The position numbers were made by a program, and so were the translations under genes. From Minisyncoccia bacterium (lineage in GTDB: Bacteria; Patescibacteriota; Minisyncoccia; Phycocordibacterales; Phycocordibacteraceae): a stretch of 64,000 nucleotides of DNA. The notes under the pieces were generated by a model that worked only from the letters and a program-made list of their open reading frames with translations, had not been told where the DNA came from and did no database searches. Below, piece by piece: positions 11,618 through 56,795 of this stretch; the first letter of the stretch is position 1, and each line of letters begins with the position of its first letter. Location of the stretch: the NCBI GenBank assembly GCA_041485695.1, contig JBGPJZ010000001.1:44697-108696 (forward strand), given 5' to 3'.

Positions 11618-12853
11618 ATGCCAAAACGAAAAATTAAGAAAATAAAAAAGGCTGCAAAGCACGCGAAGACGAAAGCGAAAATTCGCAAAGCAAGCCCGCG
11701 CCTGCCTGCCGGCAGGCAGGCCACAAGGCATGCGCGGGTGAAACGCATCGTGCGCATCGCTGCGACTGGCGTAAGGGCGAAGGCGGCGGCGCAGATGCAG
11801 CTTTCAGCCGAACAGCTCATCACGAAGGGCAAGGAGCGCGGCTACATCACCTACAACGAGATCCTTAAGTCCTTCCCGCATGTCGAAGACGACGTCGACT
11901 TCCTCGAGGCTCTCTACGAACGCTTCTCGATAGCAGGCATCGATGTCCTTGAAGGGGGCATGCTTGAGGATAATGCCGATCAGTATCTTGCGACCAAGAA
12001 CATCAAAGACCGGCAGTCGACCTCGTACGATTCCATCCAGATTTATTTGCGCGAAATCGGCCAGTACCCTTTGCTTACCGCCGCTGAAGAGCGCCAGTTG
12101 GCTCAACGGATCGAGAGGGGTGATGCTGAAGCGCGCAATATCCTCGCGAGGAGCAACCTCCGCCTCGTCGTTTCAATAGCAAAAAAGTATGTCGGCCGTT
12201 CACCTGACCTGACCTTGCTTGACCTCATTCAAGAGGGGAATTTGGGCCTCTTTCGCGCCGTCGATAAGTTCGACTGGAAAAAAGGCTATAAGTTCTCGAC
12301 CTACGCTACGTGGTGGATTCGCCAGGCGATTACGCGCGCCTTGGCCGACCAGTCGCGCACTATCCGCATCCCCGTGCACATGGTAGAAACAATCGCAAAA
12401 TACAAGCAAGTCTCGAGGCGCCTGGCGCAGGCCTTGGGCCGCGACCCGCAGGCTGAGGAGATTGCGGTCGAGATGGGCGTCGAACCGGAGAAGATCTACC
12501 AGATCGAGAAAATCAACCAAGACACCCTCTCTTTGGAGAACCCTGTCGGCTCTGACGACGATGAAAAGTCCACCCTGGGCGACTTTATTGCTGATGACAA
12601 AATCCCCAGCCCGGTTCAAGAGTCGTCGGAGCGTATCCTTGCCGAGCAGGTTCGGAGTATCTTGAGCGACCTTTCGCCCAAGGAGCGCAAGATTTTGGAA
12701 ATGCGCCACGGGCTCCTCGACGGTATTTACCACACGCTTGAAGAAGTGGGTAAGGAGTTCGGCGTGACTCGCGAGCGCATCCGCCAAATCGAGGCGAAGG
12801 CGCTCGAAAAAATCCGGACCCATGACAGAGCTAGACACCTGAAGAGTTATTAA
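11618..12853 (+). CDS. rpoD: RNA polymerase sigma factor, sigma-70 family, with a Lys-rich N-terminal extension
   Basis: Region 2 [40 protein letters not shown] and region 4 [24 protein letters not shown]. Confidence 0.95.
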
Positions 12854-13203: not shown

Positions 13204-13257
13204 CCGGGCAGCCCCTCTCGTTGATCTGAAATCGATAGTACCATGTAGGTTCAGCCT

Positions 13258-15640: not shown

Positions 15641-15649
15641 CAGGGCAGT

Positions 15650-16900
15650 TTACGCGTTCCTAATATGAGCTGCAACATCCGCAAGCGAGAGCGAGCGCTC
15701 CTCACCGGTCGAGAGCCGCTTCACGCGGAGCGTGTGCGAATGCTTCTCTTCGTCGCCGACGGCAGCAAAGTACGGGATGCCGCGACGGTCGGCGTCCTTT
15801 ACTTGGTCGCCGAGCGATTTGGCCGACAGGTTTATAAAAACGCGGAGCCCGCTCGCGCGGAGCATCTCGGCCGCTCCGTTAGCCGCGGCGAGGTCGTTTT
15901 CAGAAGGGGTGCCGAGGTAGAGCTCGGGCGCGCTTGTCGATGCGGGGAGCAGGTCGTGGGTCGTAAGAAAGTCGACCAAGGTCACATCTCCCATGCCGAA
16001 GCCCACCGCAGGGACGGGCTCGCCGCCAAAGAGGCTGACGAGGTCGTCGTAGCGCCCGCCGCCGAACAACGCGCGCGAGTTCGCAGGGTCGGTATCGTAA
16101 ATTTCAAAGACGATGCCAGTGTAGTAGTCGAAGCCCCGCACGATCGAGGGGTCGAAGACGACATTCGCTATCCCGCGCGCCTTGAAAGCCTCGATAAGCT
16201 TCATAAGCTTCTCTTTTTCGGCACGTACGCGCTTGTCGCTCTCGATGAGCGCGAGAGGGTCGGTAGAGGTGATTGCGTCAAGCGCTACCTTAAAATCGGC
16301 GCCAGGCATCTTGTCTTTTTTATCGAGGAGGCGTAAGTAGGCGCGCGCCGCCTCCGCCTTCATGCCAGCTGCCTTGCAGGCGGCATCGAGCAAGGCGCGC
16401 GAGCTCATTCGGATGACGAAGTCGTCGTCCGTCGCGCCAAAGGCGGCAAGCAGAGCATGGGCTATGACGATAATCTCGCCATCAGCCTTTGTATCTTTGA
16501 CCCCGAGCAAGTCAACATTGAGTTGGTAGTGCTCCCGCAAGCGCCCCCTCTGCGGCCGTTCATAGCGAAAGAGGTTCGGTAGCGAAAACCAGCGCAAAGG
16601 GAGGGGGAGCTCGCGGCGCTTATGGGCGACCATGCGTGCAAGAGTGGGCGTCATTTCGGGGCGGAGCGTGACGCGCCGCCCGCCGCGGTCTTCAAAGGTG
16701 TACGTCTGCTCACTCACGATCTCTTCATTACCCTTACTCTCGTAGAGCTCTGCGCGCTCCAGAGGGGAGGCGTTGTACTCTTCGTAGCCCCACAAGGCGA
16801 GCGTTTGCCGCAAGCGTTCGAAAATCGCCTGCATCAGTGCCCAGTCGAGCGGGTAAAAGTCGCGTACGCCTTTGTACGAGTCAGTCGAAAGCTCACTCAT
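15650..16900 (-). CDS. hisS: Histidine--tRNA ligase
   Basis: Class II motifs TLRPEMTP, FRYERPQRGRLREHYQ and GGRYD. Confidence 0.93.
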   Translation of the reverse strand: MSELSTDSYKGVRDFYPLDWALMQAIFERLRQTLALWGYEEYNASPLERAELYESKGNEEIVSEQTYTFEDRGGRRVTLRPEMTPTLARMVAHKRRELPLPLRWFSLPNLFRYERPQRGRLREHYQLNVDLLGVKDTKADGEIIVIAHALLAAFGATDDDFVIRMSSRALLDAACKAAGMKAEAARAYLRLLDKKDKMPGADFKVALDAITSTDPLALIESDKRVRAEKEKLMKLIEAFKARGIANVVFDPSIVRGFDYYTGIVFEIYDTDPANSRALFGGGRYDDLVSLFGGEPVPAVGFGMGDVTLVDFLTTHDLLPASTSAPELYLGTPSENDLAAANGAAEMLRASGLRVFINLSAKSLGDQVKDADRRGIPYFAAVGDEEKHSHTLRVKRLSTGEERSLSLADVAAHIRNA

Positions 16901-17436
16901 GCACCCAGTGTATCACCACTCGGTTTTGTCGAAACATACTTCAATATAATGTCGCGCATCTGCGCGGGGTGGGGGATGCCGCGCATCGAAAAGCGGTCAA
17001 CCGCGCCCGCGCTCTGCACGTTGATATCGCCGATATCAAGCAAGGAGACCAGGATGCCTTCGGTGTCGACGGTGATGTCCTGGACGCGGTTAAGGAGGAG
17101 GGACGAGACCTCGCGGCGGAAGAATCCTTTTTGGTGGATGTCGACGATGCGAAAGTTCGTCACGACCCAGAGATTCAAGAAATAGCGGGTGAAGGTGAGC
17201 CATGCCGCCGTCCAGATAAAGAGCCACCAGGTAGCGAGCAATAAGCGTATGACACCGTCCCCGCCCCAATTGACCGTTGACCATAATGGCTGGTTGAACA
17301 TTTCAAGGAGGCGCGGGAGCGCAAGCGGCAGCAGCGCGAGGATGGCGAAAGGGAGGAGTTGAAGCAAAAAGATAAACCAATGCTTGCGCGCCTCCTTGAC
17401 TACATGTTCGCCGGGCTCGAGTTCAAATTCTTTCAT
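16897..17436 (-). CDS. Bacterial PH domain (bPH_2/YdbT-like) membrane protein
   Basis: LEPGEHVVKEARKHW followed by 2 TM helices and a PH-like domain. 4-bp overlap with hisS. Confidence 0.65.
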   Translation of the reverse strand: MKEFELEPGEHVVKEARKHWFIFLLQLLPFAILALLPLALPRLLEMFNQPLWSTVNWGGDGVIRLLLATWWLFIWTAAWLTFTRYFLNLWVVTNFRIVDIHQKGFFRREVSSLLLNRVQDITVDTEGILVSLLDIGDINVQSAGAVDRFSMRGIPHPAQMRDIILKYVSTKPSGDTLGA

Positions 17437-17701: not shown

Positions 17702-18442
17702 CTAAAAGGATATCACGATGACACGAGGCCGCTCGTACTGGTCGTTCTTGATGAAGGCCTTGAAGCCCTGCTCGGTAAAGAGCTCACGCGCAGCATCGGC
17801 ATGTTCGGCATCGCATTCGACCCATGCCGCGCCACCTTTCGCCAGGTGGCGTGGCAATTCAAGCGCGATCCGGCGTATGACCGCGAGCCCGTCAGGGCCA
17901 GCGCGGAGCGCCAACGCGGGTTCGTAGTCCGCAACGCTTACTGGTAATTCGCGGCCTTCGGGCACGTAGGGCGGGTTCGCGGCGATGAAGTCGAATCCGC
18001 CAGCTGGCGGACTCGCCGCGAACGGCTCGAACAAGTCGCCGATGCGTACTTCTGCACGCGATTCATCAAGCTTATTTTCACGAATGTTTTTACGAATCGT
18101 CGCTTCATGCTCTGGGTCGATTTCGCAAAAATAAACTTGTGCGTTCGGGCACTGTGCCAAAATCGCGCACCCAATCGCCCCCGAACCCGCACACAAATCG
18201 AGCACCGAGAGCTGAGAGGTGTCACTGAGGGAGGTTCCGGAAGGCGACGGCCTGAGGCCCAGCGATTTTTCAGCAGAAAAATACGCGTCTCCCGAAGGGA
18301 CACTTTTCAGCTCAAGGATTAGCTCCTCGACCCACCACTCGGTCTCCGGGCGAGGGATTAAGGGGTGCGAATCAAGCCAGATTTTGAGGCCCAAAAACGG
18401 CACCCATCCTAGCCTGTACGCCTCTGGCTCTTCGCTCTGCAT
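17702..18442 (-). CDS. prmC: Release factor glutamine N5-methyltransferase
   Basis: LDLCAGSGAIG SAM motif, IAANPPYV (NPPY). Confidence 0.9.
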   Translation of the reverse strand: MQSEEPEAYRLGWVPFLGLKIWLDSHPLIPRPETEWWVEELILELKSVPSGDAYFSAEKSLGLRPSPSGTSLSDTSQLSVLDLCAGSGAIGCAILAQCPNAQVYFCEIDPEHEATIRKNIRENKLDESRAEVRIGDLFEPFAASPPAGGFDFIAANPPYVPEGRELPVSVADYEPALALRAGPDGLAVIRRIALELPRHLAKGGAAWVECDAEHADAARELFTEQGFKAFIKNDQYERPRVIVISF

Positions 18443-18464
18443 CGCCCTATGCTACACTTTTTCT

Positions 18465-20745: not shown

Positions 20746-20754
20746 TCTAGTGAA

Positions 20755-20768
20755 CTTAACCGGTTAAG
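20755..20768. promoter_or_regulatory. Perfect 14-bp palindrome cttaaccggttaag about 10 nt upstream of the RRM gene start
   Basis: Self-complementary sequence in the divergent intergenic region between the RRM gene and 20916..21185. Confidence 0.3.
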
Positions 20769-20915
20769 CTCGCCGATACTGCCGCTCTTTGACGCCTGCC
20801 GGCCGACATGGCTGGCTTGCGCGCCGACTAGCTCTGATACTTGCGAGTAGCAGCAATATGACAGAAAGTTGAGGACTACGCAAGAGTCTATCCCCACCTT
20901 TGTTATACTAGCCGT

Positions 20916-22254: not shown

Positions 22255-22270
22255 CCTGTAAGGTGCGAGC

Positions 22271-23368: not shown

Positions 23369-23421
23369 GGAGCCCTTTCGGGGTAGTTAGGATACTTGGT
23401 TTTGTGGTATAATCCACCCCT

Positions 23422-24384: not shown

Positions 24385-27204
24385 ATGCGGACGTATGACC
24401 ACCAAGAGATAGAGAAGCGCGCCCAAGAGAAATGGGCCTCGCTCGGCTTATATCAAGCAGACCTCGAAGACGATTCGAAAGACCCGTACTACCTCCTCAC
24501 CGAATTCCCCTACCCATCGGGCGACCTCCACATCGGGCACTGGTACGCGTTTGCGGTCACCGATATCTTCGCGCGAGTGAAGCGCATGAAGGGGGAGAAT
24601 GTCTTCTTTCCCATCGGGTTCGATGCGTTCGGCCTCCCGGCCGAGAACGCCGCCATCAAGAACAAGCTCGACCCTAAGGAGTGGACGTACAAGAACATGG
24701 AGCGGATGCGCGAACAGCTTCGCTCGATGGGCGCCTCGTTTGACTGGAGCAAAGAGGTCGTTACCTGCGAGCCTTCGTATTACAAATGGACGCAGTGGCT
24801 CTTCGTGAAGCTCATGGAGCACGGCCTCGCGTATCGCGCCGAGGCCTCAGTGAAGTGGTGCCCCAAAGACCAGACCGTGCTCGCGAACGAGCAGGTCGTC
24901 GACGGCTGCTGCGAACGCTGCGGCACGCCAGTCGAAGAGAAGTGGCTCACGCAATGGTTCCTCAAGATTACCGACTACGCCGAGCGCCTGCTTAAAGACC
25001 TCGAGCCTTTGCCGTGGCGCGAAGAGATCAAGGAGGCCCAGCGCGCGTGGGTAGGCAAGAGCGAGGGCGCGCACATCTCATTTACGATTTCTGGCCGAGA
25101 CGAGAAGGTCAAAGTCTTTACGACGCGGCCTGATACGCTTTTCGGCGCGACCTATTTGGTCCTTGCGCCCGAATACCCGCTCGTTTCACCACTCCTGACA
25201 AGCGTTTCGAATAAGAAAGAAGCCGAGAAGTATATCGATGCGACGAAAAAGAAGACGGAACGAGAGCGTTCCGAGAATAAGGAGAAGACCGGGGTGAAAC
25301 TCGAGGGTGTGAGAGCCATCAATCCGGCCAACCAAGAAGAAATCCCTGTGTACATCGCTGATTACGTCCTCGCCTCATATGGCACAGGCGCGGTGATGGC
25401 GGTGCCCGCTCACGACGAACGCGACTTCGCATTCGCGAAGAAATTTGATTTGCCCATTAGAACGGTCGTAGTCCCCAGACTTGTCGATGACCGGAACCCG
25501 CATATCGAAGGGAAAGAATTGGTGCACCGGAAGATAATCCTCGGCATCGTCAGGAATCCGAAGAACGGTAAATTCCTAGCACTTACATGGAAGAAACAGC
25601 CGTGGACGACGTTCGTCGTAGGGGGTATCGAAGAAGGCGAATCGCCTGAGCAAGCGGCTCGACGCGAAATCGAAGAAGAGACAGGGTATAAGAACCTGAG
25701 ATTCATAAAGGTGCTCGGTGACCCTATTCAGACAGAATTTTATGCGGCGCACAAGGACTTCAATCGTGTGGCGCTCGATTGGCCAGTGCTTTTCGAGCTC
25801 GAGGATGAAGAAAAGAGCGAAGTGAGCGACGAGGAGAAAGACAAGCACGAACCGACGTGGGTTAAGCGCAACGAGCTGACGCGCGAGCGTTTTGAGCATA
25901 TCGAACTCGATATCGTACTCGACCGCATGGACAATGGAGAGAGGGCATATACCGGAGCCGGCGTCCTTATCGCGTCAGGCGGATTCGATGGTAAAGAGAG
26001 CGAAGAGGCGAAATGGGAGATTGTGAAGGCAGTCGGGGGAGAGAGGACGACGAACTACCGCCTGCGCGATTGGCTCGTCTCACGCCAGCGATACTGGGGC
26101 TGCCCGATACCGGTCGTGTATGACCCGGAGGGGGCGCCGCACGCCGTGCCGCCCGAACACCTGCCGTGGCTCCTGCCGACCGATGTCGATTTCGCTCCGC
26201 ACGGGGAGGCGCCGCTCGCATCATCAAAGGAGCTCAAAAAGCGCGTCGAGAAGCTTTTCGGCAAAGGCTGGACGCCCGAATACGACACTCTCGATACGTT
26301 CGTCGACTCCTCATGGTATTTCTTGCGGTATCTCGACCCGAAAGATGAAAACGATTTCAGCGATAAGGGCCTCATGAAAAAGTGGCTCCCCGTCGACCGC
26401 TATTCGGGCGGGAGCGAGCACACGACCATGCACCTCCTCTACGCGCGTTTCTTTCATAAAGCGCTCTCTGACCTTGCACTCGTGCCTACGGCGGAACCGT
26501 TCAACGAACGCTTCAACCGCGGGCTCATCCTCGGGTCAGACGGGCAAAAGATGAGCAAGAGCAAAGGGAATGTCCTCAACCCCGACGAATTCGTGCAAAA
26601 GTACGGCGCCGACGCCGTGCGCCTCTACCTCGCCTTCATCGGGCCCTACAACGAGCCCGGTAGCTACCCCTGGAGTCTCGACGGGGTCGCGGCGATGCGC
26701 AAATTCATCGATCGCGTCGTACGCATGGTCGAGACTGCTACAGGAACTACCAACGTAGATTCAGAGTTCATAGCCGGGAAGGTGAAAATAGATACCGAGC
26801 GTTTTAAATTCAATACTGCAATTGCTGCACTCATGTCTCATCTTAATCTTTGCGAAAAATCTAAACCCGTATCAATAAAAACTGCAAGAGAATTTATTAT
26901 CTTGCTTGCGCCCTTCGCTCCGCATTTGGCTGAGCATCTTTGGGAGCAAATCAACGGGGAGGGGAGTGTTCACCAAGCTTCATGGCCTGTTGTGAACGAA
27001 GAGATACTCGGATTTTTCAACGGGGAAATTGCGGTGCAAGTCAACGGCAAAAAACGCGGCTCGATTACGCTCTCCGCTGATGCGACAGAAGCGGATGCAG
27101 TCGCTCTTGCGCGGAACATTGCTAGCGTACGCACCGCGCTCGGCGGAAAAGAGCCCCAACGAGTCGTCTATCGGCCCGGGAAGATTCTGAACCTCGTCAT
27201 TTGA
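24385..27204 (+). CDS. leuS: Leucine--tRNA ligase carrying a nested NUDIX hydrolase domain
   Basis: HIGH (LHIGHWYAF), CP1 editing motifs (TRPDTLFGATY, GTGAVMAVPAHDERDFAFA), NYRLRDWLVSRQRYWGCPIP and KMSKSKGN. Extra segment aa about 363-520 with Nudix box GGIEEGESPEQAARREIEEETGY. Confidence 0.95.
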   Translation: MRTYDHQEIEKRAQEKWASLGLYQADLEDDSKDPYYLLTEFPYPSGDLHIGHWYAFAVTDIFARVKRMKGENVFFPIGFDAFGLPAENAAIKNKLDPKEWTYKNMERMREQLRSMGASFDWSKEVVTCEPSYYKWTQWLFVKLMEHGLAYRAEASVKWCPKDQTVLANEQVVDGCCERCGTPVEEKWLTQWFLKITDYAERLLKDLEPLPWREEIKEAQRAWVGKSEGAHISFTISGRDEKVKVFTTRPDTLFGATYLVLAPEYPLVSPLLTSVSNKKEAEKYIDATKKKTERERSENKEKTGVKLEGVRAINPANQEEIPVYIADYVLASYGTGAVMAVPAHDERDFAFAKKFDLPIRTVVVPRLVDDRNPHIEGKELVHRKIILGIVRNPKNGKFLALTWKKQPWTTFVVGGIEEGESPEQAARREIEEETGYKNLRFIKVLGDPIQTEFYAAHKDFNRVALDWPVLFELEDEEKSEVSDEEKDKHEPTWVKRNELTRERFEHIELDIVLDRMDNGERAYTGAGVLIASGGFDGKESEEAKWEIVKAVGGERTTNYRLRDWLVSRQRYWGCPIPVVYDPEGAPHAVPPEHLPWLLPTDVDFAPHGEAPLASSKELKKRVEKLFGKGWTPEYDTLDTFVDSSWYFLRYLDPKDENDFSDKGLMKKWLPVDRYSGGSEHTTMHLLYARFFHKALSDLALVPTAEPFNERFNRGLILGSDGQKMSKSKGNVLNPDEFVQKYGADAVRLYLAFIGPYNEPGSYPWSLDGVAAMRKFIDRVVRMVETATGTTNVDSEFIAGKVKIDTERFKFNTAIAALMSHLNLCEKSKPVSIKTAREFIILLAPFAPHLAEHLWEQINGEGSVHQASWPVVNEEILGFFNGEIAVQVNGKKRGSITLSADATEADAVALARNIASVRTALGGKEPQRVVYRPGKILNLVI
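25471..25944 (+). other. Nested NUDIX hydrolase domain inside the LeuS CP1/editing region
   Basis: Perfect GX5EX7REUXEEXGU motif. About 135-aa Nudix-fold-sized insert between ...LPIRTVV and GAGVLIASGGFDG...NYRLRDW. Locally lower GC. Confidence 0.75.
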
Positions 27205-28358: not shown

Positions 28359-28374
28359 CTGTTACAATTACCGC

Positions 28375-31122: not shown

Positions 31123-32058
31123 ATGGAGAACGTGAAGGGGAAGAAGGTGTTTATAGGCCTCTCGGGGGGAGTAGATTCGGCTGTCTCAGCTGCGCTCTTG
31201 AAGCGCGGTGGGGCAATCGTAACAGGTGTATTCATAAAAGGCTGGTACCCGCCAGGCATGCCCTGTACCTGGGCAGAAGATCGCCGCGACGCGATGCGCG
31301 TCGCGGCTCGTCTGCGTATCCCGTTCGTAACGCTCGATGCGAGCGCGGAGTACAAGAAGTGGGTCATCGATTATCTTTTGGCCGAATATCGGGCAGGCAG
31401 GACCCCGAATCCGGATGTCATGTGCAATCGTGAAATAAAATTTGGCGTTTTTTACCGCTATGCGAAAGCAGAAGGCGCCGATTATATCGCCACCGGTCAC
31501 TATCGGAGCGGAGAGAAGGACCAGAGCTACTTCTTATGGGCTGTCCCGCACGATGTTCTTGCTGAAACCATCTTTCCCATAGGGGACATGAATAAAAAAG
31601 AGGTTCGTGCGCTTGCAAAGCGACTTCGCTTGCCAGTCGCAGGGAAAAAAGATAGTCAGGGCATCTGCTTCTTGGGCGATGTATCAGTCGAAGATTTCTT
31701 GAAGAAAGAATTAGGGACTCACAATCCCGCGCTTCTCTATACGCTCGGGCAAAGAATCTCGCTCCCTGACGGCCCATGGTATGTCGTCGGGAAAGACGTG
31801 GGGAAGAAAGAAGTCGCTGTTTCAAGAGAGCGAGTACGACAAAGGAACGAGATACCCTTTCGTGATGCCAACTGGCTTGCTCTGCCCGCACGAGCCACCG
31901 AAGCGCAGTATCGGTATCGAGCGAGGCACGTCGCAGGCCGCATCAAGGGCTCTACCTTCATCCCTTCTGTCCCGATTCAAGAACCCATAGCGCCAGGGCA
32001 ATCCATCGTCTTTTATCGAGGACAGGAACTTATCGGCGGTGGTATCATTGGCTCATGA
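31123..32058 (+). CDS. mnmA: tRNA-specific 2-thiouridylase
   Basis: SGGVDSAV PP-loop, NPDVMCN, ATGHY. Start at the ATG with GAGGA SD, aligned to the MnmA N-terminus. Confidence 0.9.
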   Translation: MENVKGKKVFIGLSGGVDSAVSAALLKRGGAIVTGVFIKGWYPPGMPCTWAEDRRDAMRVAARLRIPFVTLDASAEYKKWVIDYLLAEYRAGRTPNPDVMCNREIKFGVFYRYAKAEGADYIATGHYRSGEKDQSYFLWAVPHDVLAETIFPIGDMNKKEVRALAKRLRLPVAGKKDSQGICFLGDVSVEDFLKKELGTHNPALLYTLGQRISLPDGPWYVVGKDVGKKEVAVSRERVRQRNEIPFRDANWLALPARATEAQYRYRARHVAGRIKGSTFIPSVPIQEPIAPGQSIVFYRGQELIGGGIIGS

Positions 32059-35338: not shown

Positions 35339-35409
35339 CCGGTGCCTCGTTCCTTTCCTGAAAACCTGCACGCCTCGCGCGTACAGGTTTTCTCTCATAT
35401 ACTCCCCCC

Positions 35410-38157: not shown

Positions 38158-38203
38158 GCCGCCATACTACACGACCTTCTATTCGCGTGCTATCGTCTCA
38201 TGC

Positions 38204-39943
38204 ATGACGGTGAATGAAGTACGGAAGCGATACTTAGACTTTTTTGAGAAAAGAGGGCACAAGGTAATACCCTCGGCGCCCATCGTGCCCGAGAATGACC
38301 CGACGACGCTTTTCACGTCGTCGGGGATGCAGCCTTTGGTGCCGTATTTGCTCGGGAAGGATCACCCGGAAGGGAAGCGGTTGGTAAACTCGCAACTTTC
38401 ATTTCGCGCGGGCGATATTGAAGAGGTGGGCGATAATCGCCACACCACTTTTTTCGAAATGCTCGGCAACTGGTCGTTGGGTGATTACTTTAAAAAAGAG
38501 CAATTGCCGTGGGTCTATGAATTTTTAACTACCGAACTAAAACTACCGAAAGAGCGGATATGGGTAACGTGCTTTGCAGGTGATGAAAATCTAGGTCTAC
38601 CAAAAGATACGGAGTCGGCAGAGATTTGGAAATCGCTCGGCGTGCCCGAAGACCGCATCCTTTTTTATGACGCCAAGAAGAATTGGTGGAGCCGCTCCGG
38701 CACGCCAGAGAAGATGCCGGCAGGGGAGCCAGGCGGCCCCGATTCTGAAATCTTTTATGACTTCGGCACGCCGCACGACTTTGCGTTTGGCGACGAGTGC
38801 CACCCTAACTGTGATTGCGGGCGTTTTATGGAGATTGGAAACTCGGTGTTTATGGAGTACATCAAAACTGCCGATGGTTTCGATAAGCTTCCGAAACGCA
38901 ATGTCGACTTCGGCGGTGGGCTCGAGCGCCTCACGGCCGCAACCCTCGGTAATCCGGATGTCTTCCTCATTGACGTGTTTGATGCGGCGCGTGAAGAGTT
39001 GGGGCGCCTCTCGGGTAAGCGGTATGAAGAATCCCTTGAAGTTACACGCGTATTCCGAATCATTTTAGATCACACACGTGCGGCTTCGGTGATGTTCGAT
39101 TTCGGCCTTCGACCCTCGAATACAGAACAAGGATACATACTCCGGCGATTAATTCGCCGCGCTATTCGTGAGGCCGACCGGCTCGGTATTACCGAAAATA
39201 TCTTAGCGGAAGTCGCTGGTGCGCACAGGGAAGAATTCCAGCAAGAAGAGGAACGATTCCGTAAAACTCTTACCCAAGGCATGCGGGAGCTCGAGAAGAT
39301 GGATCCGATTGACGCCTTTACTCTTTTTACGACCTACGGATTTCCGGTTGAACTCACGGCTGAAATAGCGGCAGAACGGGGGAAGCCGATCAATTTTGAA
39401 GAGGTAAAGACGCAAATGGAGGAGCATCAAGCGAAAAGCCGTGCAGGGGCGGCGCAAAAGTTCGCGGGGGGATTAGCGGATCATGCAGAGCAGACCATCC
39501 GCTACCACACGGCGCACCATATTTTACTCAAAGCGCTCCAGATGGTGCTCGGACCCGACGTCCACCAGCGGGGGAGCAATATCACAAGCGAACGGCTTCG
39601 CATCGATTTTTCGCATGGGCAAAAAATGACACCCGAACAGATTGCTCAAGTAGAAAGAATCGTGAATGAAAAGATAGCTGAAGCAATTCCCGTCATCCGC
39701 ACTGATATGAAGAAAGAAGAAGCAGAGAAGCTCGGGGCCGAGCACGAGTTCGGTGTTAAGTACCCCGATACTGTTTCAATCTACTCGGTGGGCCCGCTTG
39801 ATAGTGCATTTTCAATAGAATTCTGCGGCGGCCCGCATGTAGAGAATACAAAAGAGTTAGGTGCCGGCGGGAAGAAATTCGAAATCCTGAAAGAAGAGGC
39901 GTCTTCAGCCGGTGTGCGTCGCATCAAAGCGGTGCTCCAATAG
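38204..39943 (+). CDS. alaS: Alanine--tRNA ligase, short form lacking the C-terminal C-Ala domain
   Basis: Class II catalytic core FTSSGMQP. Editing-domain HTAHHIL...CGGPHV. 579 aa vs about 870 canonical. TATCGT 7 nt before the ATG. Confidence 0.85.
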   Translation: MTVNEVRKRYLDFFEKRGHKVIPSAPIVPENDPTTLFTSSGMQPLVPYLLGKDHPEGKRLVNSQLSFRAGDIEEVGDNRHTTFFEMLGNWSLGDYFKKEQLPWVYEFLTTELKLPKERIWVTCFAGDENLGLPKDTESAEIWKSLGVPEDRILFYDAKKNWWSRSGTPEKMPAGEPGGPDSEIFYDFGTPHDFAFGDECHPNCDCGRFMEIGNSVFMEYIKTADGFDKLPKRNVDFGGGLERLTAATLGNPDVFLIDVFDAAREELGRLSGKRYEESLEVTRVFRIILDHTRAASVMFDFGLRPSNTEQGYILRRLIRRAIREADRLGITENILAEVAGAHREEFQQEEERFRKTLTQGMRELEKMDPIDAFTLFTTYGFPVELTAEIAAERGKPINFEEVKTQMEEHQAKSRAGAAQKFAGGLADHAEQTIRYHTAHHILLKALQMVLGPDVHQRGSNITSERLRIDFSHGQKMTPEQIAQVERIVNEKIAEAIPVIRTDMKKEEAEKLGAEHEFGVKYPDTVSIYSVGPLDSAFSIEFCGGPHVENTKELGAGGKKFEILKEEASSAGVRRIKAVLQ

Positions 39944-39958
39944 TTTATACTTAACCCA

Positions 39959-41002: not shown

Positions 41003-41066
41003 TCGTATCCACTCCTCGCCGGGGCTTGCGGTGTTACTTTTTCCGAAGTAGCCTATACTATCCTCT

Positions 41067-44171: not shown

Positions 44172-44217
44172 ATTTATCCTGTTACATTTATTCACCGCAG
44201 GTAATTACGATTGAGTT

Positions 44218-47255: not shown

Positions 47256-47603
47256 TCAGGTGCCGGCGAAAAAGCCGGTTTCGCGATAGACAATGTCTCG
47301 AGCGTAACAGAGGCCGGCAGTGCCGCGAATATGGAGTTCGTCAGCACGTTCGACCAACTCTTTGGCATAGCGGTATTTGAAGCCGGACTCCGCTTGTATC
47401 CGAAACCGAAAAACGGTCATCATGAATGCCGCAGTCAATTGATCGAGGTTGTCGATGATGGCAACGGCTTCCTCGATGTCATAGTTGGCAATGATATCGG
47501 CGGCATTCGCGGGGTCGTAAGCATTACGAATTTCGCTCAACAAATCATTCACGTCCCTGCCCTTAACGACAAGGGCTAGGCGGTTTGGTCTTTCTTTGGC
47601 CAT
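47256..47603 (-). CDS. Hypothetical protein (115 aa)
   Basis: Strong SD AAGGAGGG 4 nt upstream of the ATG. No recognised domain. Confidence 0.55.
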   Translation of the reverse strand: MAKERPNRLALVVKGRDVNDLLSEIRNAYDPANAADIIANYDIEEAVAIIDNLDQLTAAFMMTVFRFRIQAESGFKYRYAKELVERADELHIRGTAGLCYARDIVYRETGFFAGT

Positions 47604-47614
47604 TAAACCCTCCT

Positions 47615-47815
47615 TCAGCAGATGGTGATGACGGTGTGGTCATAGATGTGACCATGAGCGTCGAGTTGAAACAAAAGTTTCCCTTTCTGTTTCAGGCTGT
47701 CGAGAATTTCCCAAAGGCCGCGTTTGATCCGAGTACGTTCACGCAATTGACCGTAGGTTACGGTCGCCCCTGCCTCGCAAGGCAAGTTGCGAATCACAAT
47801 GCTTTCGAAGTTCAT
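47615..47815 (-). CDS. Small hypothetical protein (66 aa), possibly winged-helix-like
   Basis: AAGGA about 10 nt upstream. Immediately precedes 47256..47603 (11-nt gap), so it is probably co-transcribed. Confidence 0.4.
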   Translation of the reverse strand: MNFESIVIRNLPCEAGATVTYGQLRERTRIKRGLWEILDSLKQKGKLLFQLDAHGHIYDHTVITIC

Positions 47816-47888: not shown

Positions 47889-48164
47889 CCACGGGTGGAT
47901 TTTTGATTGCTGAACTCTTTTCTGGCACACTGTCGTGGGATTGAATTGCGCTAGGCTCGAGAGCGCGGTACGCTACAGATGTCGTCCCTTGACATCGGAC
48001 GATCTCCACCTTGGCCCCGCTCCCTCGGCGGGGTCTTTTTAATTTCGGAATACGCTATAATAAAAGCGTCTCCCGTTGTGGGCGACACCCCCAACTTGGC
48101 CCCGCACTTCCCCGCGGGGCCTTTTTTTGACTACCAAACTCTTTTCAGGCATAGTGTAGGGATG
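47889..48164 (+). promoter_or_regulatory. Hairpin-rich grpE leader/regulatory region: three terminator-like stem-loops, a TATAAT box and a duplicated about 30-nt motif
   Basis: Hairpins ccacgggtgg+TTTTT (47889-47905), ccccgc..gcgggg+TCTTTTT (48015-48040) and ggccccgc..gcggggcc+TTTTTTT (48098-48128). TATAAT at 48056-48061. Motif aactcttttcNggcaNaNtgtNgggat at 47913-47943 and at 48137-48164, the latter ending in the grpE ATG. Confidence 0.45.
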
Positions 48165-48680
48165 CAGGACGAGGACGAAGTAAAGATTGAGTCCGAAGAC
48201 CCGGAGGCGGAGGAGAAGGCCGAGAACAAAGTAAAGAAACTCCGCGATGAGATTGAAACCCTGCGTAAAGAGAAGCAGGAGTATCTTGATGGCTGGCAGA
48301 GAGCCAAGGCCGACTACGTGAACGCCCTGAAGCGCTTTGAGGGCGACGTAAAGAATGCCAAGGGGGATGGGGTCAAGAAGGCCGTAGAGGCCCTTTTACC
48401 GGCCTTTGACGCCCTAGAGAGGGCTAAGGAGCATGGGGAAGTCCCAGAGGGTTTTATGGCTATTGCGAAGCAATTAGAGGCTGGTTTTGCCGGTTTAGGC
48501 CTCGAGGCGGTGGGGCAGGTTGGGGAGCGATTCAACCCCGAGCTCCACGAGGCTTTGGGGCAGGACGCGGTGAGCGATTCAAACCAAGACGACGCGATTA
48601 CCGCCGTACTCGAGAAAGGATACCGTTTGGGCGACCAGATTATCCGCCCGGCGAAGGTGCGAGTTGCGCATTATGAGTAA
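48162..48680 (+). CDS. grpE: Nucleotide exchange factor GrpE
   Basis: Coiled-coil plus GrpE domain (DYVNALKRFE...NPELHEA...AITAVLEKGYRLGDQIIRPAKVRV). Start at the internal ATG, because the upstream part of the ORF is translated hairpins. Confidence 0.85.
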   Translation: MQDEDEVKIESEDPEAEEKAENKVKKLRDEIETLRKEKQEYLDGWQRAKADYVNALKRFEGDVKNAKGDGVKKAVEALLPAFDALERAKEHGEVPEGFMAIAKQLEAGFAGLGLEAVGQVGERFNPELHEALGQDAVSDSNQDDAITAVLEKGYRLGDQIIRPAKVRVAHYE

Positions 48681-48700: not shown

Positions 48701-48730
48701 TTGACATGCGGTCTCACTTTTAAATATAAT
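48701..48730 (+). promoter_or_regulatory. Consensus sigma-70-type promoter TTGACA-18-TATAAT ending 8 nt before the dnaK ATG (leaderless-type)
   Basis: Exact hexamers at 48701-48706 and 48725-48730. No SD before the ATG at 48739. Confidence 0.6.
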
Positions 48731-48738
48731 CAGCACCT

Positions 48739-50637
48739 ATGGCAAAAATACTCGGAATAGACTTGGGCACCACGAACTCCGCGATGGCTATCATCGAGGG
48801 CGGCGAGCCGCGCGTGTTGGAGAATGCCGAAGGCGCGCGCACCACACCCTCGATTGTTGCTGTAGGTAAAAACGGCGAACGCATCGTCGGCACTTTGGCG
48901 AAGCGCCAGTCGGTAACGAACCCTTTGAACACGATTTACCAGATCAAGCGCTTCATTGGCCACAATTTTGACGAGCCGGCAGTGCAAAAAGACAAGGAGT
49001 CAGTGCCCTTTGAGATGCGTAAGGCCGAGAATGGCGGCATCGAGGTCAAGATGAGTCAAGGAGATAAAGAAGTGTGGTACCGACCGGAGGAGCTCTCGGC
49101 CATGATTTTGGGCAAGCTTAAGGCCGATGCCGAGGCAAAGCTCGGGGAGAAGATTACCGAGGCAGTCATCACTGTGCCTGCCTACTTTAACGATGCACAG
49201 CGCAATGCGACTAAGGACGCTGGCAAAATTGCTGGCCTTGAAGTGAAGCGCATCATCAACGAGCCCACTGCTGCCGCGCTTGCCTACGGCTTTAATAAAA
49301 AGAAGGAGGAGAAGATAGCGGTCTTCGACTTTGGCGGCGGCACCTTCGACGTCTCTATTCTTGAGGTGGGCGACAACGTGATTGAGGTCAAATCGACCGA
49401 TGGCGATGCGCACTTGGGTGGTAAAGACATTGACCAAAAGATAATCAACTGGCTTGCCGACGAGTTTAAGAAGCAGAGCGGTATCGATGTCCGCGGCGAC
49501 GCGCTCGCGCGCCAGCGCCTCGACGAGGCGGCAGAGAAGGCGAAGATAGAGCTCTCAAGCGCGATGGAGAGCGAGGTCAATATCCCCTTCATCACCTCGA
49601 ACGCCTCGGGCCCCCAGCACCTCCTTATAAAGATGACACGCGCGAAGCTCGAAGAGCTCTCGGCCGAGTTCGTCGACCGCGCGATGGCTATCACCAAGCG
49701 CGCGATGGAGGCCTCACCCTTTAAGGTGGGCGAGATTAATGAAGTCATCTTGGTGGGCGGCCAGACCCGCATGCCAAAGATCCAGCAGGCGGTGAAAGAG
49801 TTCTTCGGCAAGCAGCCGAACATGACGGTGAACCCTGACGAAGTAGTCGCCGTCGGTGCCGCTATCCAAGCCGGCATCTTGCAGGGCGACGTCAAGGATA
49901 TCCTGCTCGTCGACGTCATCCCGCTCTCGCTCTCAATCGAGACCATGGGCGGCGTTGCGACTAAATTAATTGAGCGCAATACCGCCATCCCGACCTCGCG
50001 CTCGCAGACCTTCTCAACGGCTGCCGACAACCAGCCTTCAGTCGAGATACATATCACCCAGGGCGAACGCGCGATGAGCGCCGACAATAAATCCCTCGGG
50101 CGCTTTATGCTGGATGGCATCCCGCCCTCGCCGCGCGGCCTCCCGCAGATCGAGGTCACCTTCGACGTCGACAGTAATGGCATCTTGACCGTGAAAGCGA
50201 AGGAGAAGACGACAAGCAAAGAGCAGTCGATACGCATCGAGGGCTCGACTGGCCTCTCAAAGGCAGATATCGACCGCATGCAAAAAGATGCTGAAGAGCA
50301 CACAGCTGACGACGCGAAGCGCAAAGAGCTCGTTGACGCGCGCAATGTCGGCGAACAGGTAATCTATGCGGCTGAAAAGGCAGTGAAGGAGAACGGCGAG
50401 AAGATTGGCGCTGAACTCGTGAAGGAGGTGGGGGATGCGGTCGAAACCGCGAAAACGGCGGCGAAGAGCGAAGACCCGGCGACCATCAAGGGCGCGACTG
50501 AAAAGCTTTCGCAGACGATGTCAAAAATTGGAGAAGCGATGATGAAGAGTCAGACTCCACCGCCGGCGTCAGACGCCGGCAGCCAAACTCCTCCCCCCGA
50601 ACCTCCTCCGACGGACGCCGAATTTAAAGAAAAATAG
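48739..50637 (+). CDS. dnaK: Chaperone protein DnaK (Hsp70)
   Basis: [16 protein letters not shown], and an EEVD-less C-terminus. Confidence 0.97.
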
Positions 50638-50660
50638 CCGTCGGTGTATACTGATTCTCA

Positions 50661-51743: not shown

Positions 51744-51766
51744 AAAATAGGGGTTATAATCCCCGT

Positions 51767-52291
51767 ATGGATTCTCTTAGCGGGCAATTGGGCGATATCA
51801 ATTCGCTTGCAACCCATAGCGCTCTCGGCGCGTGGGCGTGGGGGAGCGACTTCCTCATCGCCATCATCCTTGTCGGCCTGCTCTTTCTTTTCGCGTGGTA
51901 CATGGGCCGTGGCCCTTTCATCGCGCTCCTCATCTCGTTGTATGCGGGGTACGCGCTCTACACTACCTTTCCCTACGCGTCATATTTACCCTCTTCGCCG
52001 CCCTTGGCAGCACTCGGCGCAGCCGTAGGCGTCTACGTCGTGCTTGCAGGTATCGCCTATACCATCCTGCGCCGCGCCGTTGTCTCTGACTTCGTCTACA
52101 TCGGCATCTTCGGCCTCATCGCTCTCTCCATATTCGGCGCCGGCTTCTTGCTCGCCCTCGCGTACAACCTTTTCCCGGTTCACGACGCCTATACCTTCAC
52201 CCCCGCAATCGATGCCCTGTTCGCGCCGAAGCAATACTTCTTCTGGTGGTTTGCCGCCCCTCTCGTTGGTCTTTTCGTCCTCGCTCGGTAA
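51767..52291 (+). CDS. Hypothetical integral membrane protein (5 TM)
   Basis: TTATAAT 6 nt before the ATG. Strongly hydrophobic. Confidence 0.5.
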   Translation: MDSLSGQLGDINSLATHSALGAWAWGSDFLIAIILVGLLFLFAWYMGRGPFIALLISLYAGYALYTTFPYASYLPSSPPLAALGAAVGVYVVLAGIAYTILRRAVVSDFVYIGIFGLIALSIFGAGFLLALAYNLFPVHDAYTFTPAIDALFAPKQYFFWWFAAPLVGLFVLAR

Positions 52292-52346
52292 TAGAAGCCC
52301 GGCGTTCAATGTCAATCAACATCAGTGCGATATACTAAAACCTCCC

Positions 52347-54122: not shown

Positions 54123-54139
54123 AGTGATACAATCGGCGC

Positions 54140-55393
54140 ATGAAGCTTGCTGAAGAGTTGAAAGCGCGGAGGCTGATTGAGCACTCCTCGGCGCCGATCG
54201 AACTCATTTTAAAGGAGCCGCGAACGGTGTATTTAGGCATCGACCCGACCGCCGACTCGATGCAAATCGGGAACTTGGCCGTAGTCCTCTTGATGAAGCG
54301 TTTAGCGGATGCCGGCAACAAGCTCATTTTCTTGGTTGGGGGCGGTACCGGCATGATTGGCGACCCGCGCGAGAATGGTGAGCGCAGTATGCTCGACGAA
54401 AAAACACTAGGGAACAATACGCGTGCCTTACAAAAACAGCTCTACAAAATTTTAGGCAAGACGAGCTTTCGCATGGTCGACAACGCCGACTGGCTCACGC
54501 GTATCCGCCTCGTTCCTTTTTTGCGCGAAATCGGCAAGCTCTTTACGGTGAACGACCTGATTAAGCGCGAGATAATCGCGAAGCGTCTCGCGACGGCTGA
54601 TGAGAGCATCTCGTACACCGAGTTTACGTACGCACTCTTACAAGCCTATGACTACTTGGTGCTGAATGAAAAATACAAGTGCGACTTGCAAATCGGCGCA
54701 TCAGATCAGTGGACGAACATCCTCTCGGGCGTCGAGCTTATCCGCAAGCGCGCGGGGCGCGAGGCCTACGCGCTCACGATGCCGCTCGTTACCGACGCGT
54801 CGGGCAAGAAGTTCGGCAAGAGCGAGGGCAATGCTGTCTGGCTCGACGCGGCGAAGACGTCGCCCTACGCGTTCTACCAATTCTGGGTGAATGTGCCCGA
54901 CGATGGCGTCGAGAAGTACCTCAAAGCCTATACCTTCATGCCGCTCGAAGAGATAGAGTCGCTGATGGCGAAGCACCGGGCGAGCCCGCAAGCGCGTCTC
55001 GCGCAAAAGGCATTGGCCGAGATTGTCACCGAGATTGTGCACGGCCCGACCGCGTCGAACCACGCGGCGCTCGCAACTGAAGCACTCTTCGGCGCTCTGC
55101 CGTTCGAAGAGCTCCCGCGCGAGACGCGCGCCATTGCCTTGAGCGAGGCGCCCTCGCTCAAGCTCGGCAAAGCAGATCTTGCCGCTGGCTATCCGCTCGT
55201 CGACGCTCTCGTCGCCGGCGGCCTCGCGAGCTCTAAGAGCGATGCGCGTCGGCTTATCGAATCGAAAGGGATCTCTATCACCGGCGCCCAAGCGGCCGAC
55301 GCGAACTACCAGATAGGGGAGGGCGATGTGAAAGAGGGGTACGGGCTCATCCGAAAGGGCAAGCGCGAAGTGCTTATTCTCGTTTTGAAATAG
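54140..55393 (+). CDS. tyrS: Tyrosine--tRNA ligase
   Basis: HIGH-region GIDPTADSMQIGN. KFGKSEGN (KMSKS). C-terminal S4-like domain. TGaTACAAT 6 nt before the ATG. Confidence 0.93.
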   Translation: MKLAEELKARRLIEHSSAPIELILKEPRTVYLGIDPTADSMQIGNLAVVLLMKRLADAGNKLIFLVGGGTGMIGDPRENGERSMLDEKTLGNNTRALQKQLYKILGKTSFRMVDNADWLTRIRLVPFLREIGKLFTVNDLIKREIIAKRLATADESISYTEFTYALLQAYDYLVLNEKYKCDLQIGASDQWTNILSGVELIRKRAGREAYALTMPLVTDASGKKFGKSEGNAVWLDAAKTSPYAFYQFWVNVPDDGVEKYLKAYTFMPLEEIESLMAKHRASPQARLAQKALAEIVTEIVHGPTASNHAALATEALFGALPFEELPRETRAIALSEAPSLKLGKADLAAGYPLVDALVAGGLASSKSDARRLIESKGISITGAQAADANYQIGEGDVKEGYGLIRKGKREVLILVLK

Positions 55394-55422
55394 AACACGA
55401 AATCGCGTATAGTGCATAGATT

Positions 55423-55512: not shown

Positions 55513-55541
55513 TTGACTATTTGCATACATTATGCTACTCT
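55513..55541 (+). promoter_or_regulatory. Putative promoter TTGACT-17-TACTCT for the small ORF
   Basis: -35 at 55513-55518 and -10 at 55536-55541. Confidence 0.4.
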
Positions 55542-55568
55542 GCTTTTGGACGTAGCAAAGGAGGCAAT

Positions 55569-55751
55569 ATGCATACGCCAGTAGTTGGAATTGGTAACGA
55601 GATGCAACAGGAGATGACGACACAGATCTATAAGACCCTGTGCCTAATGTTTCCGGGCTCGAGCCCACCCCTTCTTATGGCTCAAGCTGACATATCATTT
55701 CGCTACAATGACGAACTAGCCCAAATCGTATTCAAGGCAGAAGCGGCATAA
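55569..55751 (+). CDS. Small hypothetical protein (60 aa) with its own promoter, SD and terminator, in a lower-GC patch
   Basis: AAGGAGG SD 5 nt upstream of the ATG. A terminator follows. It is in frame with ORF-track 55482..55751. Confidence 0.5.
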   Translation: MHTPVVGIGNEMQQEMTTQIYKTLCLMFPGSSPPLLMAQADISFRYNDELAQIVFKAEAA

Positions 55752-55801: not shown

Positions 55802-55823
55802 GTTTCTATGGTAGAGTTTTTGA

Positions 55824-56786
55824 ATGAGCGACAGCGGGAAGAAAACGATGCTCTCGGGGATACAGCCCTCGGGTGAGCTCCATATCGGCAACTATTTTGG
55901 CGCCATGCGCCAGCAAATTGAGCTTGTCAATTCAGGCGAGTACACCTCGTACTTGATGGTGGCTGACTATCACGCCCTCAACACCATCCAAGACCCTGAA
56001 GAGATGCGTCGCCGCACGCGAGAGCTTGTCATTGGTTACTTGGCCGCGGGTCTCGACACTAAGCAGGCGGTTATTTTCAAACAATCAGAGGTACCGGCAC
56101 ACACCGAACTCGCTTGGATTTTCGATACCATCATCACCATGCCGTACCTCATGCGGGCGCACGCCTTTAAGGATGCTGAAGTGAAGAATAAAGAGATAAG
56201 CGTCGGCAAATTCAACTACCCCGTCCTCATGGCGGCCGACATATTGCTCTACGACACGAACATCGTGCCGGTCGGCGCTGACCAAAAGCAGCATGTTGAA
56301 TACGCGCGCGACATCGCAGAGAAATTCAACCGTACGTTTACAACGGAGGTTTTTCGGCTACCCGAAGCGTTCATCAAGCCCGAGGTCGCCGTCGTGCCGG
56401 GCACCGATGGCCAGAAGATGAGCAAGAGTTATGGCAATGTGATCCCCCTTTTCGGTTCTCGCGACGAACTCGTAAAAGCCGTTATGGGTATCGTTACCGA
56501 TTCATCCGGCGAACGGCCGGAGAACGTCTACGCGATACATAAGCTGGTACGGGGCGAAGAGGAGCTTGCTCCTCTCTATGAAGAGAACAAGGGCAACTAC
56601 AAAGCGCTTAAAGAGGCGTTGATTGAAGATTTGGGCCGTTACCTCGCTCCTCTGCGTGCAAAATATGAGGAGCTTAAAAGCAACCCCGATATCATCGAGC
56701 AAGTCCTTATGGAAGGGAAACGTGCTGCGCAAGCCGCAAGCGAGACAAAAATGGAACAAGTGCGTAAAGCGGTCGGAGTGGCATAA
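55824..56786 (+). CDS. trpS: Tryptophan--tRNA ligase
   Basis: LSGIQPSGELHIGNY (HIGH-like) and KMSKSYGN. Confidence 0.93.
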   Translation: MSDSGKKTMLSGIQPSGELHIGNYFGAMRQQIELVNSGEYTSYLMVADYHALNTIQDPEEMRRRTRELVIGYLAAGLDTKQAVIFKQSEVPAHTELAWIFDTIITMPYLMRAHAFKDAEVKNKEISVGKFNYPVLMAADILLYDTNIVPVGADQKQHVEYARDIAEKFNRTFTTEVFRLPEAFIKPEVAVVPGTDGQKMSKSYGNVIPLFGSRDELVKAVMGIVTDSSGERPENVYAIHKLVRGEEELAPLYEENKGNYKALKEALIEDLGRYLAPLRAKYEELKSNPDIIEQVLMEGKRAAQAASETKMEQVRKAVGVA

Positions 56787-56795
56787 TAAAGGACT

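Follow-up and report, generated by a model that had tools for sequence, protein, structure and literature searches.

The closest described counterparts of the arrangement discussed here are the genomes that GeneMarkS-2 places in its group C. According to that survey (PMC6028130), such genomes have a Pribnow box 6-8 nt from the starts of operon-first genes and 25-50% of leaderless operons; membership reaches 90% in Actinobacteria and 97% in Deinococcus-Thermus, and differential RNA sequencing (dRNA-seq) data for M. tuberculosis and for D. deserti served to check the signature. Some Mycoplasma also belong to group C (MetaGeneMark-2 preprint). As for the Parcubacteria, an anti-Shine-Dalgarno (anti-SD) sequence was detected in only 48% of their 16S rRNAs and bS21 is often absent, and the study reporting this does not settle how initiation proceeds (Tsurumaki et al. 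2022, PMC9297842). Here we analysed a 64,000-nt stretch of DNA from a Minisyncoccia bacterium (contig JBGPJZ010000001.1, positions 44,697 to 108,696; the whole stretch is called the window below), in which a sequence-only reading had noticed a -10 box recurring 6-9 nt upstream of start codons, as at dnaK, and had taken it to imply widespread leaderless or near-leaderless mRNAs. What we find is the known leaderless architecture of group C in a lineage for which a published report was not found: our literature search returned no report of leaderless expression in the Candidate Phyla Radiation (CPR), Patescibacteria, Parcubacteria or Saccharibacteria, and no published transcription start map for Paceibacteria.

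The window (~56% G+C) carries rpsP-KH-trmD, rpoB, rpoC, dnaG, rpoD, hisS, prmC, ychF, leuS, ung, alaS, rpsM-rpsK-rpsD-rpoA-rplQ, grpE-dnaK-dnaJ, tyrS, tRNA-Tyr, trpS, aspS and pepA. Two gene lists were used. The automatic one (56 complete genes) was obtained by codon-usage scoring and takes the first start after the upstream stop, while in the curated one (62 genes) the starts were mended with Pfam coordinates, terminators and Joint Genome Institute (JGI) calls. Spacing is the number of nucleotides between the last T of the TANNNT box and the A of the start codon. As controls we took all other ATGs of the window (n = 1,729), spurious open reading frames (ORFs) picked, like the automatic genes, by taking the first start behind a stop, and the motif TA[CT]NNT, which is incapable of being a stop codon. 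The spurious ORFs were needed because the start rule itself enriches in-frame TAA and TAG, which match TAN.

A TANNNT box at spacing 6-8 precedes 19 of the 56 automatic genes, as against 39 of the 1729 control ATGs (2.3%; binomial P = 1e-17), and the modal spacing is 6, found in 12 of the 56. With the curated starts, 25 of 62 genes (~40%) have the box at 6-8 nt and six more have it at 5, 9 or 10 nt. Spacing 6 occurs in 21% of genes but in only 2% of the spurious ORFs, and the stop-free motif still peaks there (9.7% vs 0.4%). The extended pattern TGnTANNNT-N6-8-ATG is present 11 times in the window, where 1.7 ± 1.3 matches are expected; ten of these eleven open ORFs of 88-579 aa, compared with 28% for ATGs generally, while the ORF of the eleventh is cut by the end of the window. 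For the loose pattern TANNNT-N6-ATG the enrichment is only ~2-fold (22 found, 11.8 ± 4 expected), and the corresponding N12 control pattern is unenriched (11 vs 12 expected). The real signal is the coincidence of the box with gene starts, not the loose pattern across the window.

Most of the genes lacking a box are tightly packed: 21 box-less curated genes overlap the preceding same-strand gene or follow it by at most 12 nt. Leaderless-type boxes stand before 25-31 of the ~40 window genes that are not tightly coupled upstream, so that, as in group C, at least ~25% of operon-first genes have the box 6-8 nt upstream. All the examples listed by the sequence-only reading (the DUF5671 gene, 51767, dnaJ, tyrS, trpS, ychF, alaS, 20916 and aspS) carry the hexamers and spacings that it gave (Table 1). 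The recurrence that it claimed is far above chance in the window and in 68 related loci.

The relatives are 80 loci whose DnaK is 72-86% identical at the amino acid level to that of the window, all from metagenome-assembled genomes (MAGs) of Candidatus Kaiserbacteria, Paceibacterota or Parcubacteria, which places the window in a Kaiserbacteria-like member of the Paceibacteria/Parcubacteria (CPR); 68 of the loci, with 1,226 genes in ~1.3 Mb, entered the statistics, the first start of each ORF being taken as the gene start. Among these genes the shares with TANNNT at spacings 6, 7 and 8 were 14.5%, 6.1% and 4.7%, compared with ~1% in matched spurious-ORF controls and 1.5-3% at other upstream positions, and TATAAT with at most one mismatch preceded 8.2% of genes vs 0.2% of controls. 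Closer relatives, at 80-86% DnaK identity, and more distant ones, at 72-77%, alike show the peak. A motif-blind matrix of 745 non-coupled ATG genes, aligned on their starts, reads TGnTATnnT ending at -7 (T-15 0.40, T-12 0.41, A-11 0.49, T-10 0.37, T-7 0.45); no such pattern emerges from the 263 coupled genes. The pattern gTGnTATAnT-N6-ATG is kept in orthologues of tyrS (23/29), gene 41067 (24/28), gene 39959 (17/21) and trpS (14/20), and although the flanks of conserved boxes cannot be aligned between orthologues, box and spacing are retained. Operon-internal genes for ribosomal proteins, on the other hand, have a box score near zero in all genomes.

The TANNNT box reads as a promoter, not as a ribosome site. 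TGn directly precedes 38% of the hexamers at 6-8 nt but only 5.4% of TANNNT elsewhere (P = 6e-48), and a -35 TTG is modestly enriched before the box (13% vs 6%), with -35 boxes at 17-18 nt for dnaK, grpE and tRNA-Tyr. Sigma region 3 reads the extended -10 TGn; the start-aligned matrix has TG at -15/-14 before a TAtaaT hexamer, and the RpoD encoded in the window possesses regions 1.1-4, region 3 included. In the relatives, the box accompanies 2% of overlapping genes vs 35-37% of genes preceded by gaps of 11-100 nt. A non-coding control, showing that the box is a promoter, is provided by tRNA-Tyr. Its promoter box is conserved in ~30 relatives (e.g., L006 at 16616 and L014 at 16734), where 8-11 nt (mode 9) separate it from the mature 5' end. 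A 9-nt spacing would set the start ~2-3 nt upstream of that end, so the polymerase seems to start ~7 nt after the box, and the tRNA-Tyr precursor appears to offer RNase P a 5' leader of only 2-3 nt.

Bacterial RNA polymerase starts ~7 nt beyond the -10 box, whose hexamer occupies positions -12 to -7, and it prefers a purine after a pyrimidine. With the hexamer at -12 to -7 and six intervening bases, +1 would fall on the A of the ATG. C or T is found at -1 in 79% of the spacing-6 genes. The start codons of 325 motif genes comprise 307 ATG (94%), 13 GTG and 5 TTG (1.5%), while ATG accounts for 79% overall; a high use of ATG and little TTG would be expected if a 5'-terminal AUG were the only signal recruiting the ribosome.

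The -1 base deserves a separate mention. In the window and in loci L001-L080, T occupies this position in 48-57% of starts and G in only 6-10%, compared with 23% each in controls, making -1 the single most informative upstream position. The bias is found with and without a -10 box, coupled genes included, so it cannot be put down entirely to the pyrimidine-purine preference at transcription starts; as a speculation, the initiator tRNA loop might take part in extended pairing.

The best overall explanation, and one in which we place considerable confidence, is that most transcription units would have their own sigma-70 extended -10 promoter (gTGnTAtaaT, with a weak -35) located 6, less often 7-8, nt before the ATG, and that the transcript would begin at the AUG or 1-2 nt before it. 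Such a leaderless mRNA would have no room for a Shine-Dalgarno (SD) site. Ribosomes carrying fMet-tRNA and IF2 would bind the 5'-terminal AUG directly, the way they do in mycobacteria, Deinococcus and haloarchaea. Box-less genes that overlap the preceding gene, or lie 1-6 nt behind it, would presumably be translated by termination-reinitiation coupling, with SD-led initiation as a rare exception. The spacings themselves are best read as leaderless at 6-7 nt and near-leaderless at 8-10 nt, where a leader of 1-4 nt is predicted (dnaK, dnaJ, DUF5671, aspS). At tyrS, aspS, hisS and 32055 the box is squeezed into a very short gap or falls within the 3' end of the gene before it, which suggests that many genes have a leaderless promoter of their own even in dense arrays. 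Taken at the level of sequence, the proposal of widespread leaderless or near-leaderless mRNAs is supported by the spacing peak, the TGn element, the orthologues, tRNA-Tyr, the ATG bias and the lack of SD sites.

That lack bears on a further proposal of the sequence-only reading, namely a dual regime in which other genes use strong SDs. The leaderless half of the proposal stands, but SD as the second regime was overstated. SD cores (GGAG, GAGG, AGGA) occur 4-18 nt upstream of 9.6% of genes and 10.7% of controls, with only a slight local excess at 6-8 nt (2.7-3.1% vs 1.5%). Only two strong SDs are present among the 62 window genes, both at small, unannotated ORFs without a Pfam match; these are the ones named at 47603 and 55569. 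The third, at 19492, is weak (AAGGGGG-5), and a fourth, described as upstream of grpE, could not be identified. SD-led initiation thus probably works in this lineage but is rare. The second regime is instead tight stop-start coupling without SD: among box-less genes, gaps of -4 and of +1 to +6 nt dominate, and a few genes have SD-less, A/U-rich leaders. No 16S rRNA gene that could be inspected for an anti-SD tail was found in the window or in the 80 related loci.

The product of gene 19492-20241 resembles the cell-cycle regulator GcrA (Pfam PF07750, E = 2e-16). Proteins of the GcrA family are characteristic of Alphaproteobacteria and of the phages that infect them, and the G-rich SD-like site of this gene, together with its weakly native codon usage, suggests that it may be acquired DNA.

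Other explanations of the box can be weighed against leaderless transcription. One of them keeps the promoters but lets transcription start a few nucleotides upstream of the AUG, giving leaders of 1-5 nt, at least in the spacing 8-10 class to which dnaK belongs. Spacings of 8-10 at dnaK, dnaJ, DUF5671, aspS, the ABC exporter, rpsP, rpoB and rpoC speak for it, as does the 9-nt spacing of tRNA-Tyr, with its implied start ~7 nt after the box; but the dominant spacing of protein genes is exactly 6, which puts the canonical +1 on the A of the ATG. As a general account we think it unlikely, and since mRNAs with leaders of up to 5 nt behave as leaderless it would be a refinement rather than a competitor. 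Alternatively, the boxes might be minor or silent and expression might come from long polycistrons by SD-independent internal initiation, at S1-bound A/U-rich sites or by reinitiation. Many boxes do lie in short gaps or in upstream 3' ends (tyrS, gap 17; aspS, gap 9; hisS, overlap), and dnaK of the relatives has an SD-less leader or follows grpE without a promoter, which means that SD-independent internal initiation exists in the lineage. Silent boxes, however, would not keep a nucleotide-exact position where the flanks have diverged, would not carry TGn, and would not be 15 times rarer at overlapping genes than at those with 11-100 nt gaps, which makes this account very improbable in our view.

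Since the SD is unused in the lineage and an anti-SD is found in only 48% of Parcubacteria 16S rRNAs (PMC9297842), an alternative ribosome signal might be expected, and the TA-rich hexamer could be such a non-SD binding or enhancer signal in the style of the group B Bacteroidetes. We rejected this possibility, which is barely credible given the TGn enrichment, the rarity of the motif in overlapping genes and the tRNA-Tyr box: the motif fits the sigma-70 extended -10 consensus, TGn included, is joined by the -35 boxes mentioned above, precedes a tRNA gene in ~30 genomes and is missing at overlapping operon-internal genes, where a ribosome-binding site would be needed most. Least probable of all, to the point of being negligible, is an artefact of AT-rich intergenic composition, of in-frame TAA/TAG before the "first ATG", or of chance. 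In-frame spacings (0, 3, 6, 9, 12) are indeed mildly raised by TAA/TAG matching TAN, and the loose pattern has only its ~2-fold enrichment window-wide; but the spurious ORFs, although selected in the same way, lack a peak, the stop-free motif does peak at 6, the other positions of the same upstream regions stay at their low level, and ten of eleven extended matches open long ORFs. The spurious-ORF, stop-free and N12 controls led us to reject both stop-codon ascertainment and AT composition as the source of the signal.

Several points nonetheless weigh against leaderless transcription from these promoters. We infer the position of the transcription start from promoter geometry. The boxes inside upstream coding sequence (hisS, aspS, 32055) could be weak or silent, with expression by read-through. 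At the genes with spacings of 8-10 named above, a leader of 1-4 nt and no leader at all are equally likely. An in-frame TAA or TAG opens half of the window's spacing-6 boxes, which is partly ascertainment and is controlled by TA[CT]NNT and the spurious ORFs. The gene calls in the relatives are crude and their loci, all of them dnaK neighbourhoods, share many orthologous genes and are not independent samples; yet 82 of 342 families contain at least one box-bearing member, and genes of small or singleton families carry the box at 16.9%. Finally, the geometry of dnaK itself is not kept in relatives, where a box at 6-8 nt was found in only 8 of 60.

At dnaK, the promoter is present as the sequence-only reading described it, a TTGACA and a TATAAT separated by 18 nt, with 8 nt (cagcacct) between the latter and the ATG, and in a promoter scan with an 18-nt spacer it matches the consensus at 12/12 positions. 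The start of the gene is fixed by an in-frame TAA (48727-29) 9 nt upstream and by the canonical DnaK N-terminus. In most relatives, however, dnaK has a promoter TTGCAA-17-TAAAAT located 22-28 nt upstream and followed by a conserved SD-less leader, CTAACTTTAAAAA, whereas in the remaining ones dnaK lies directly behind grpE, without a promoter of its own, and is co-transcribed with it. With its spacing of 8, its near-leaderless character and its unconserved geometry, dnaK is atypical and not the best example of the arrangement.

The CTAACTTTAAAAA leader is conserved far better than the surrounding sequence and might serve to enhance translation or as an operator. It was found in L002-L005, L010, L014, L015, L019-L022, L026, L031, L034, L036, L040 and L044.

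With TANNNT 6-8 nt from the start and a preference for ATG, the window resembles the group C genomes (Mycobacterium tuberculosis, Streptomyces, D. deserti) as they are described in the GeneMarkS-2 survey. The remaining genes of group C genomes have SD sites; in the window lineage SD stays at background, and genes other than the box-bearing ones are tightly coupled or have A/U-rich leaders devoid of SD. Further differences are the strongly extended -10 (TGn) promoters, the intermediate G+C content and the small genome. The promoters themselves are like other extended -10 (TGnTATAAT) sigma-70 promoters, with the same TG one base upstream and a weak or absent -35; what is special here is their fixed position relative to the start codon. 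Haloarchaea, like the window lineage, make little functional use of the SD, which is dispensable for their leadered and internal genes. They also resemble it in their high leaderless fraction (e.g., Haloferax volcanii; PMC6028130). Haloarchaeal genes, however, have TATA/BRE promoters ~26 nt upstream and archaeal initiation factors, as opposed to a sigma-70 -10 box at 6 nt. The Bacteroidetes of group B share with the window a largely unused SD and A-rich upstream regions. Their motif (PMC6028130) is not a promoter, belongs to leadered mRNAs and stands before all genes, operon-internal ones included, whereas that of the window reads as a promoter and, rather than preceding first and internal operon genes alike, is absent from coupled, overlapping ones. 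The CPR are not named in the passages of the survey consulted (PMC6028130).

The positions of the boxes depend on correct start codons. For ychF, ung, rpsM, rpoA, dnaJ, tyrS, trpS, aspS and hisS, the alignments to NCBIfam profiles begin at residues 1-8, and independent JGI starts agree for dnaK, dnaJ, 51767 and 52347. In the case of alaS, the start at 38204 (TGcTATCGT-7-ATG), already favoured by the sequence-only reading, proved better than that of the longest ORF. This start, 28 codons inside the longest ORF, is supported by homology, brings the Pfam alanyl-tRNA synthetase domain to residue 5 instead of 33, and removes a 38-nt overlap with the divergent pepO-like gene. For grpE, the longest ORF, which is also the JGI call (47979-48680, 233 aa), runs through both of the intrinsic terminators described below; the Pfam GrpE domain begins at residue 76 of this long ORF but near residue 15 from the ATG at 48162, which is likely the true start, with TTGACT-17-CATAGT-6-ATG. 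The longest ORF of the ABC exporter (TTG 52044, to 54122) overlaps the 174-aa membrane-protein gene (51767-52291) by 248 nt. Its real start is the ATG at 52347, as indicated by the JGI call and the position of Pfam ABC_membrane.

Table 1. Boxes, promoters, SD sites and genes discussed in the text (window coordinates; distances in nt from the last base of the element to the start codon)
Feature	Position	Strand	Remark
dnaK -35 hexamer TTGACA	48701..48706	+	12/12 consensus with the -10
dnaK -10 hexamer TATAAT, 8 nt before ATG 48739	48725..48730	+	near-leaderless, 0-3 nt leader predicted
dnaK coding sequence	48739..50637	+	start set by in-frame stop and conserved N-terminus
grpE -10 CATAGT, with TTGACT 48127-32 and 17-nt spacer; 6 nt before revised ATG 48162	48150..48155	+	
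dnaJ -10 TATACT, 8 nt before ATG 50661	50647..50652	+	17/42 orthologues; DnaJ profile from residue 1
-10 TATAAT, 6 nt before ATG 51767 (174-aa membrane protein)	51755..51760	+	gene also called by JGI
ABC exporter -10 TATACT, 10 nt before revised ATG 52347; short leader	52331..52336	+	
tyrS extended -10 TGaTACAAT, 6 nt before ATG 54140; in 17-nt gap after ABC gene	54125..54133	+	
tRNA-Tyr promoter TTGAAA-17-TATAGT, box ending 9 nt before mature 5' end 55423	55385..55413	+	
SD-led unit: TTGACT-17-TACTCT, ~20-nt leader, AAGGAGG, 4 nt, ATG 55569 (60-aa ORF)	55513..55571	+	
trpS extended -10 TGgTAGAGT, 6 nt before ATG 55824	55809..55817	+	14/20 orthologues
aspS extended -10 TGgCATAAT, 8 nt before ATG 56796; inside trpS 3' end, 9-nt gap	56779..56787	+	
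rpoD (sigma-70), regions 1.1, 1.2, 2, 3, 4	11618..12853	+	Pfam
PD-(D/E)XK nuclease gene -10 TAGGTT, 6 nt before ATG 13258	13246..13251	+	
-10 TAAACT, 6 nt before ATG 15640	15647..15652	-	
hisS extended -10 TGaTACACT, 6 nt before ATG 16900; embedded in upstream gene	16907..16915	-	
Extended -10 TGaTATCCT, 7 nt before ATG 17699	17707..17715	-	
prmC -10 TAGCAT, 6 nt before ATG 18442; back-to-back with 18465 promoter	18449..18454	-	
DUF1360 protein gene extended -10 TGcTACACT, 6 nt before ATG 18465	18450..18458	+	
RRM RNA-binding protein gene -10 TAAGTT, 7 nt before ATG 20745	20753..20758	-	
Extended -10 TGtTATACT, 6 nt before ATG 20916	20901..20909	+	
ychF -10 TAAGGT, 6 nt before ATG 22271	22259..22264	+	YchF profile 1-365 aligned from residue 1
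DUF5671 gene extended -10 TGgTATAAT, 8 nt before ATG 23422	23405..23413	+	Pfam DUF5671 confirmed
Extended -10 TGtTACAAT, 6 nt before ATG 28375	28360..28368	+	
Extended -10 TGgTATCAT, 6 nt before ATG 32055 (137-aa membrane protein)	32040..32048	+	
ung -10 TATACT, 6 nt before ATG 35410	35398..35403	+	
pepO-like gene -10 TAGTAT, 6 nt before ATG 38157; divergent from alaS	38164..38169	-	
alaS extended -10 TGcTATCGT, 7 nt before revised ATG 38204	38188..38196	+	
-10 TATACT, 7 nt before ATG 39959	39946..39951	+	17/21 orthologues
-10 TATACT, 7 nt before ATG 41067	41054..41059	+	24/28 orthologues
rpoA -10 TACGAT, 6 nt before ATG 44218	44206..44211	+	20/45 orthologues
Strong SD AGGAGG, 5 nt before ATG 47603 (115-aa protein, no family match)	47608..47614	-	

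The divergent region upstream of grpE contains two tandem units of ~60 nt (window 47970-48130, plus strand), next to the rare SD-bearing genes of the minus strand (47256-47815). Each unit has its own -10 (TACGCT, 47970-75; TATAAT, 48056-61), a 5' hairpin, a C-rich single-stranded linker (CUCCACCUUGG and CACCCCCAACUUGG, respectively) and a strong intrinsic terminator (stems at 48013-35 and 48098-121), with fold z-scores of -3.9 and -3.5. Rfam returned only sub-threshold matches to C-rich small RNAs (sX13, toxic sRNA), and a search of the relatives did not find the units, which are thus not conserved. We consider them candidate small RNAs.

Two aminoacyl-tRNA synthetases of the window were noted for their domain make-up. 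The leucyl-tRNA synthetase (24385-27204, 939 aa) has a NUDIX hydrolase domain inserted behind the editing domain (residues 384-504, Pfam E = 9e-15), while the alanyl-tRNA synthetase (38204-39943) is short (579 aa), consisting of the catalytic core and the second additional domain without the long C-terminal extension. The genes upstream of rpoB, inspected with a possible loss of uL1 in mind, are not an L11-L1-L10-L12 cluster but rpsP, a KH-domain gene and trmD.

For annotation, the practical consequence is that gene callers trained on SD sites misplace starts in these MAGs, as with alaS and probably grpE, which the longest-ORF rule or pipeline calls make too long here; a -10 box at 6-8 nt is, conversely, a near-perfect marker of the start codon, given that ten of the eleven extended-motif matches open real genes. 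In a bolder form, which we advance only tentatively and which is rather more apt to fail than to hold, Kaiserbacteria and related Paceibacteria would have all but abandoned SD initiation, with nearly every gene either leaderless, from an extended -10 promoter of its own that may sit in the 3' end of the gene before it, or read by reinitiation a few nucleotides after an upstream stop. Were this true, the leaderless fraction would approach haloarchaeal levels, at ~60-75% of the independently initiated genes of the window, and it would explain why many Parcubacteria do without a 16S anti-SD motif and bS21. The mechanism itself is textbook, which limits the surprise. The ribosomes of CPR/Patescibacteria are reduced, and a regime of leaderless mRNAs plus coupling would give a concrete answer to how these bacteria choose their start codons; it would also add a deep-branching lineage to the taxa considered in the debate on ancestral leaderless initiation.

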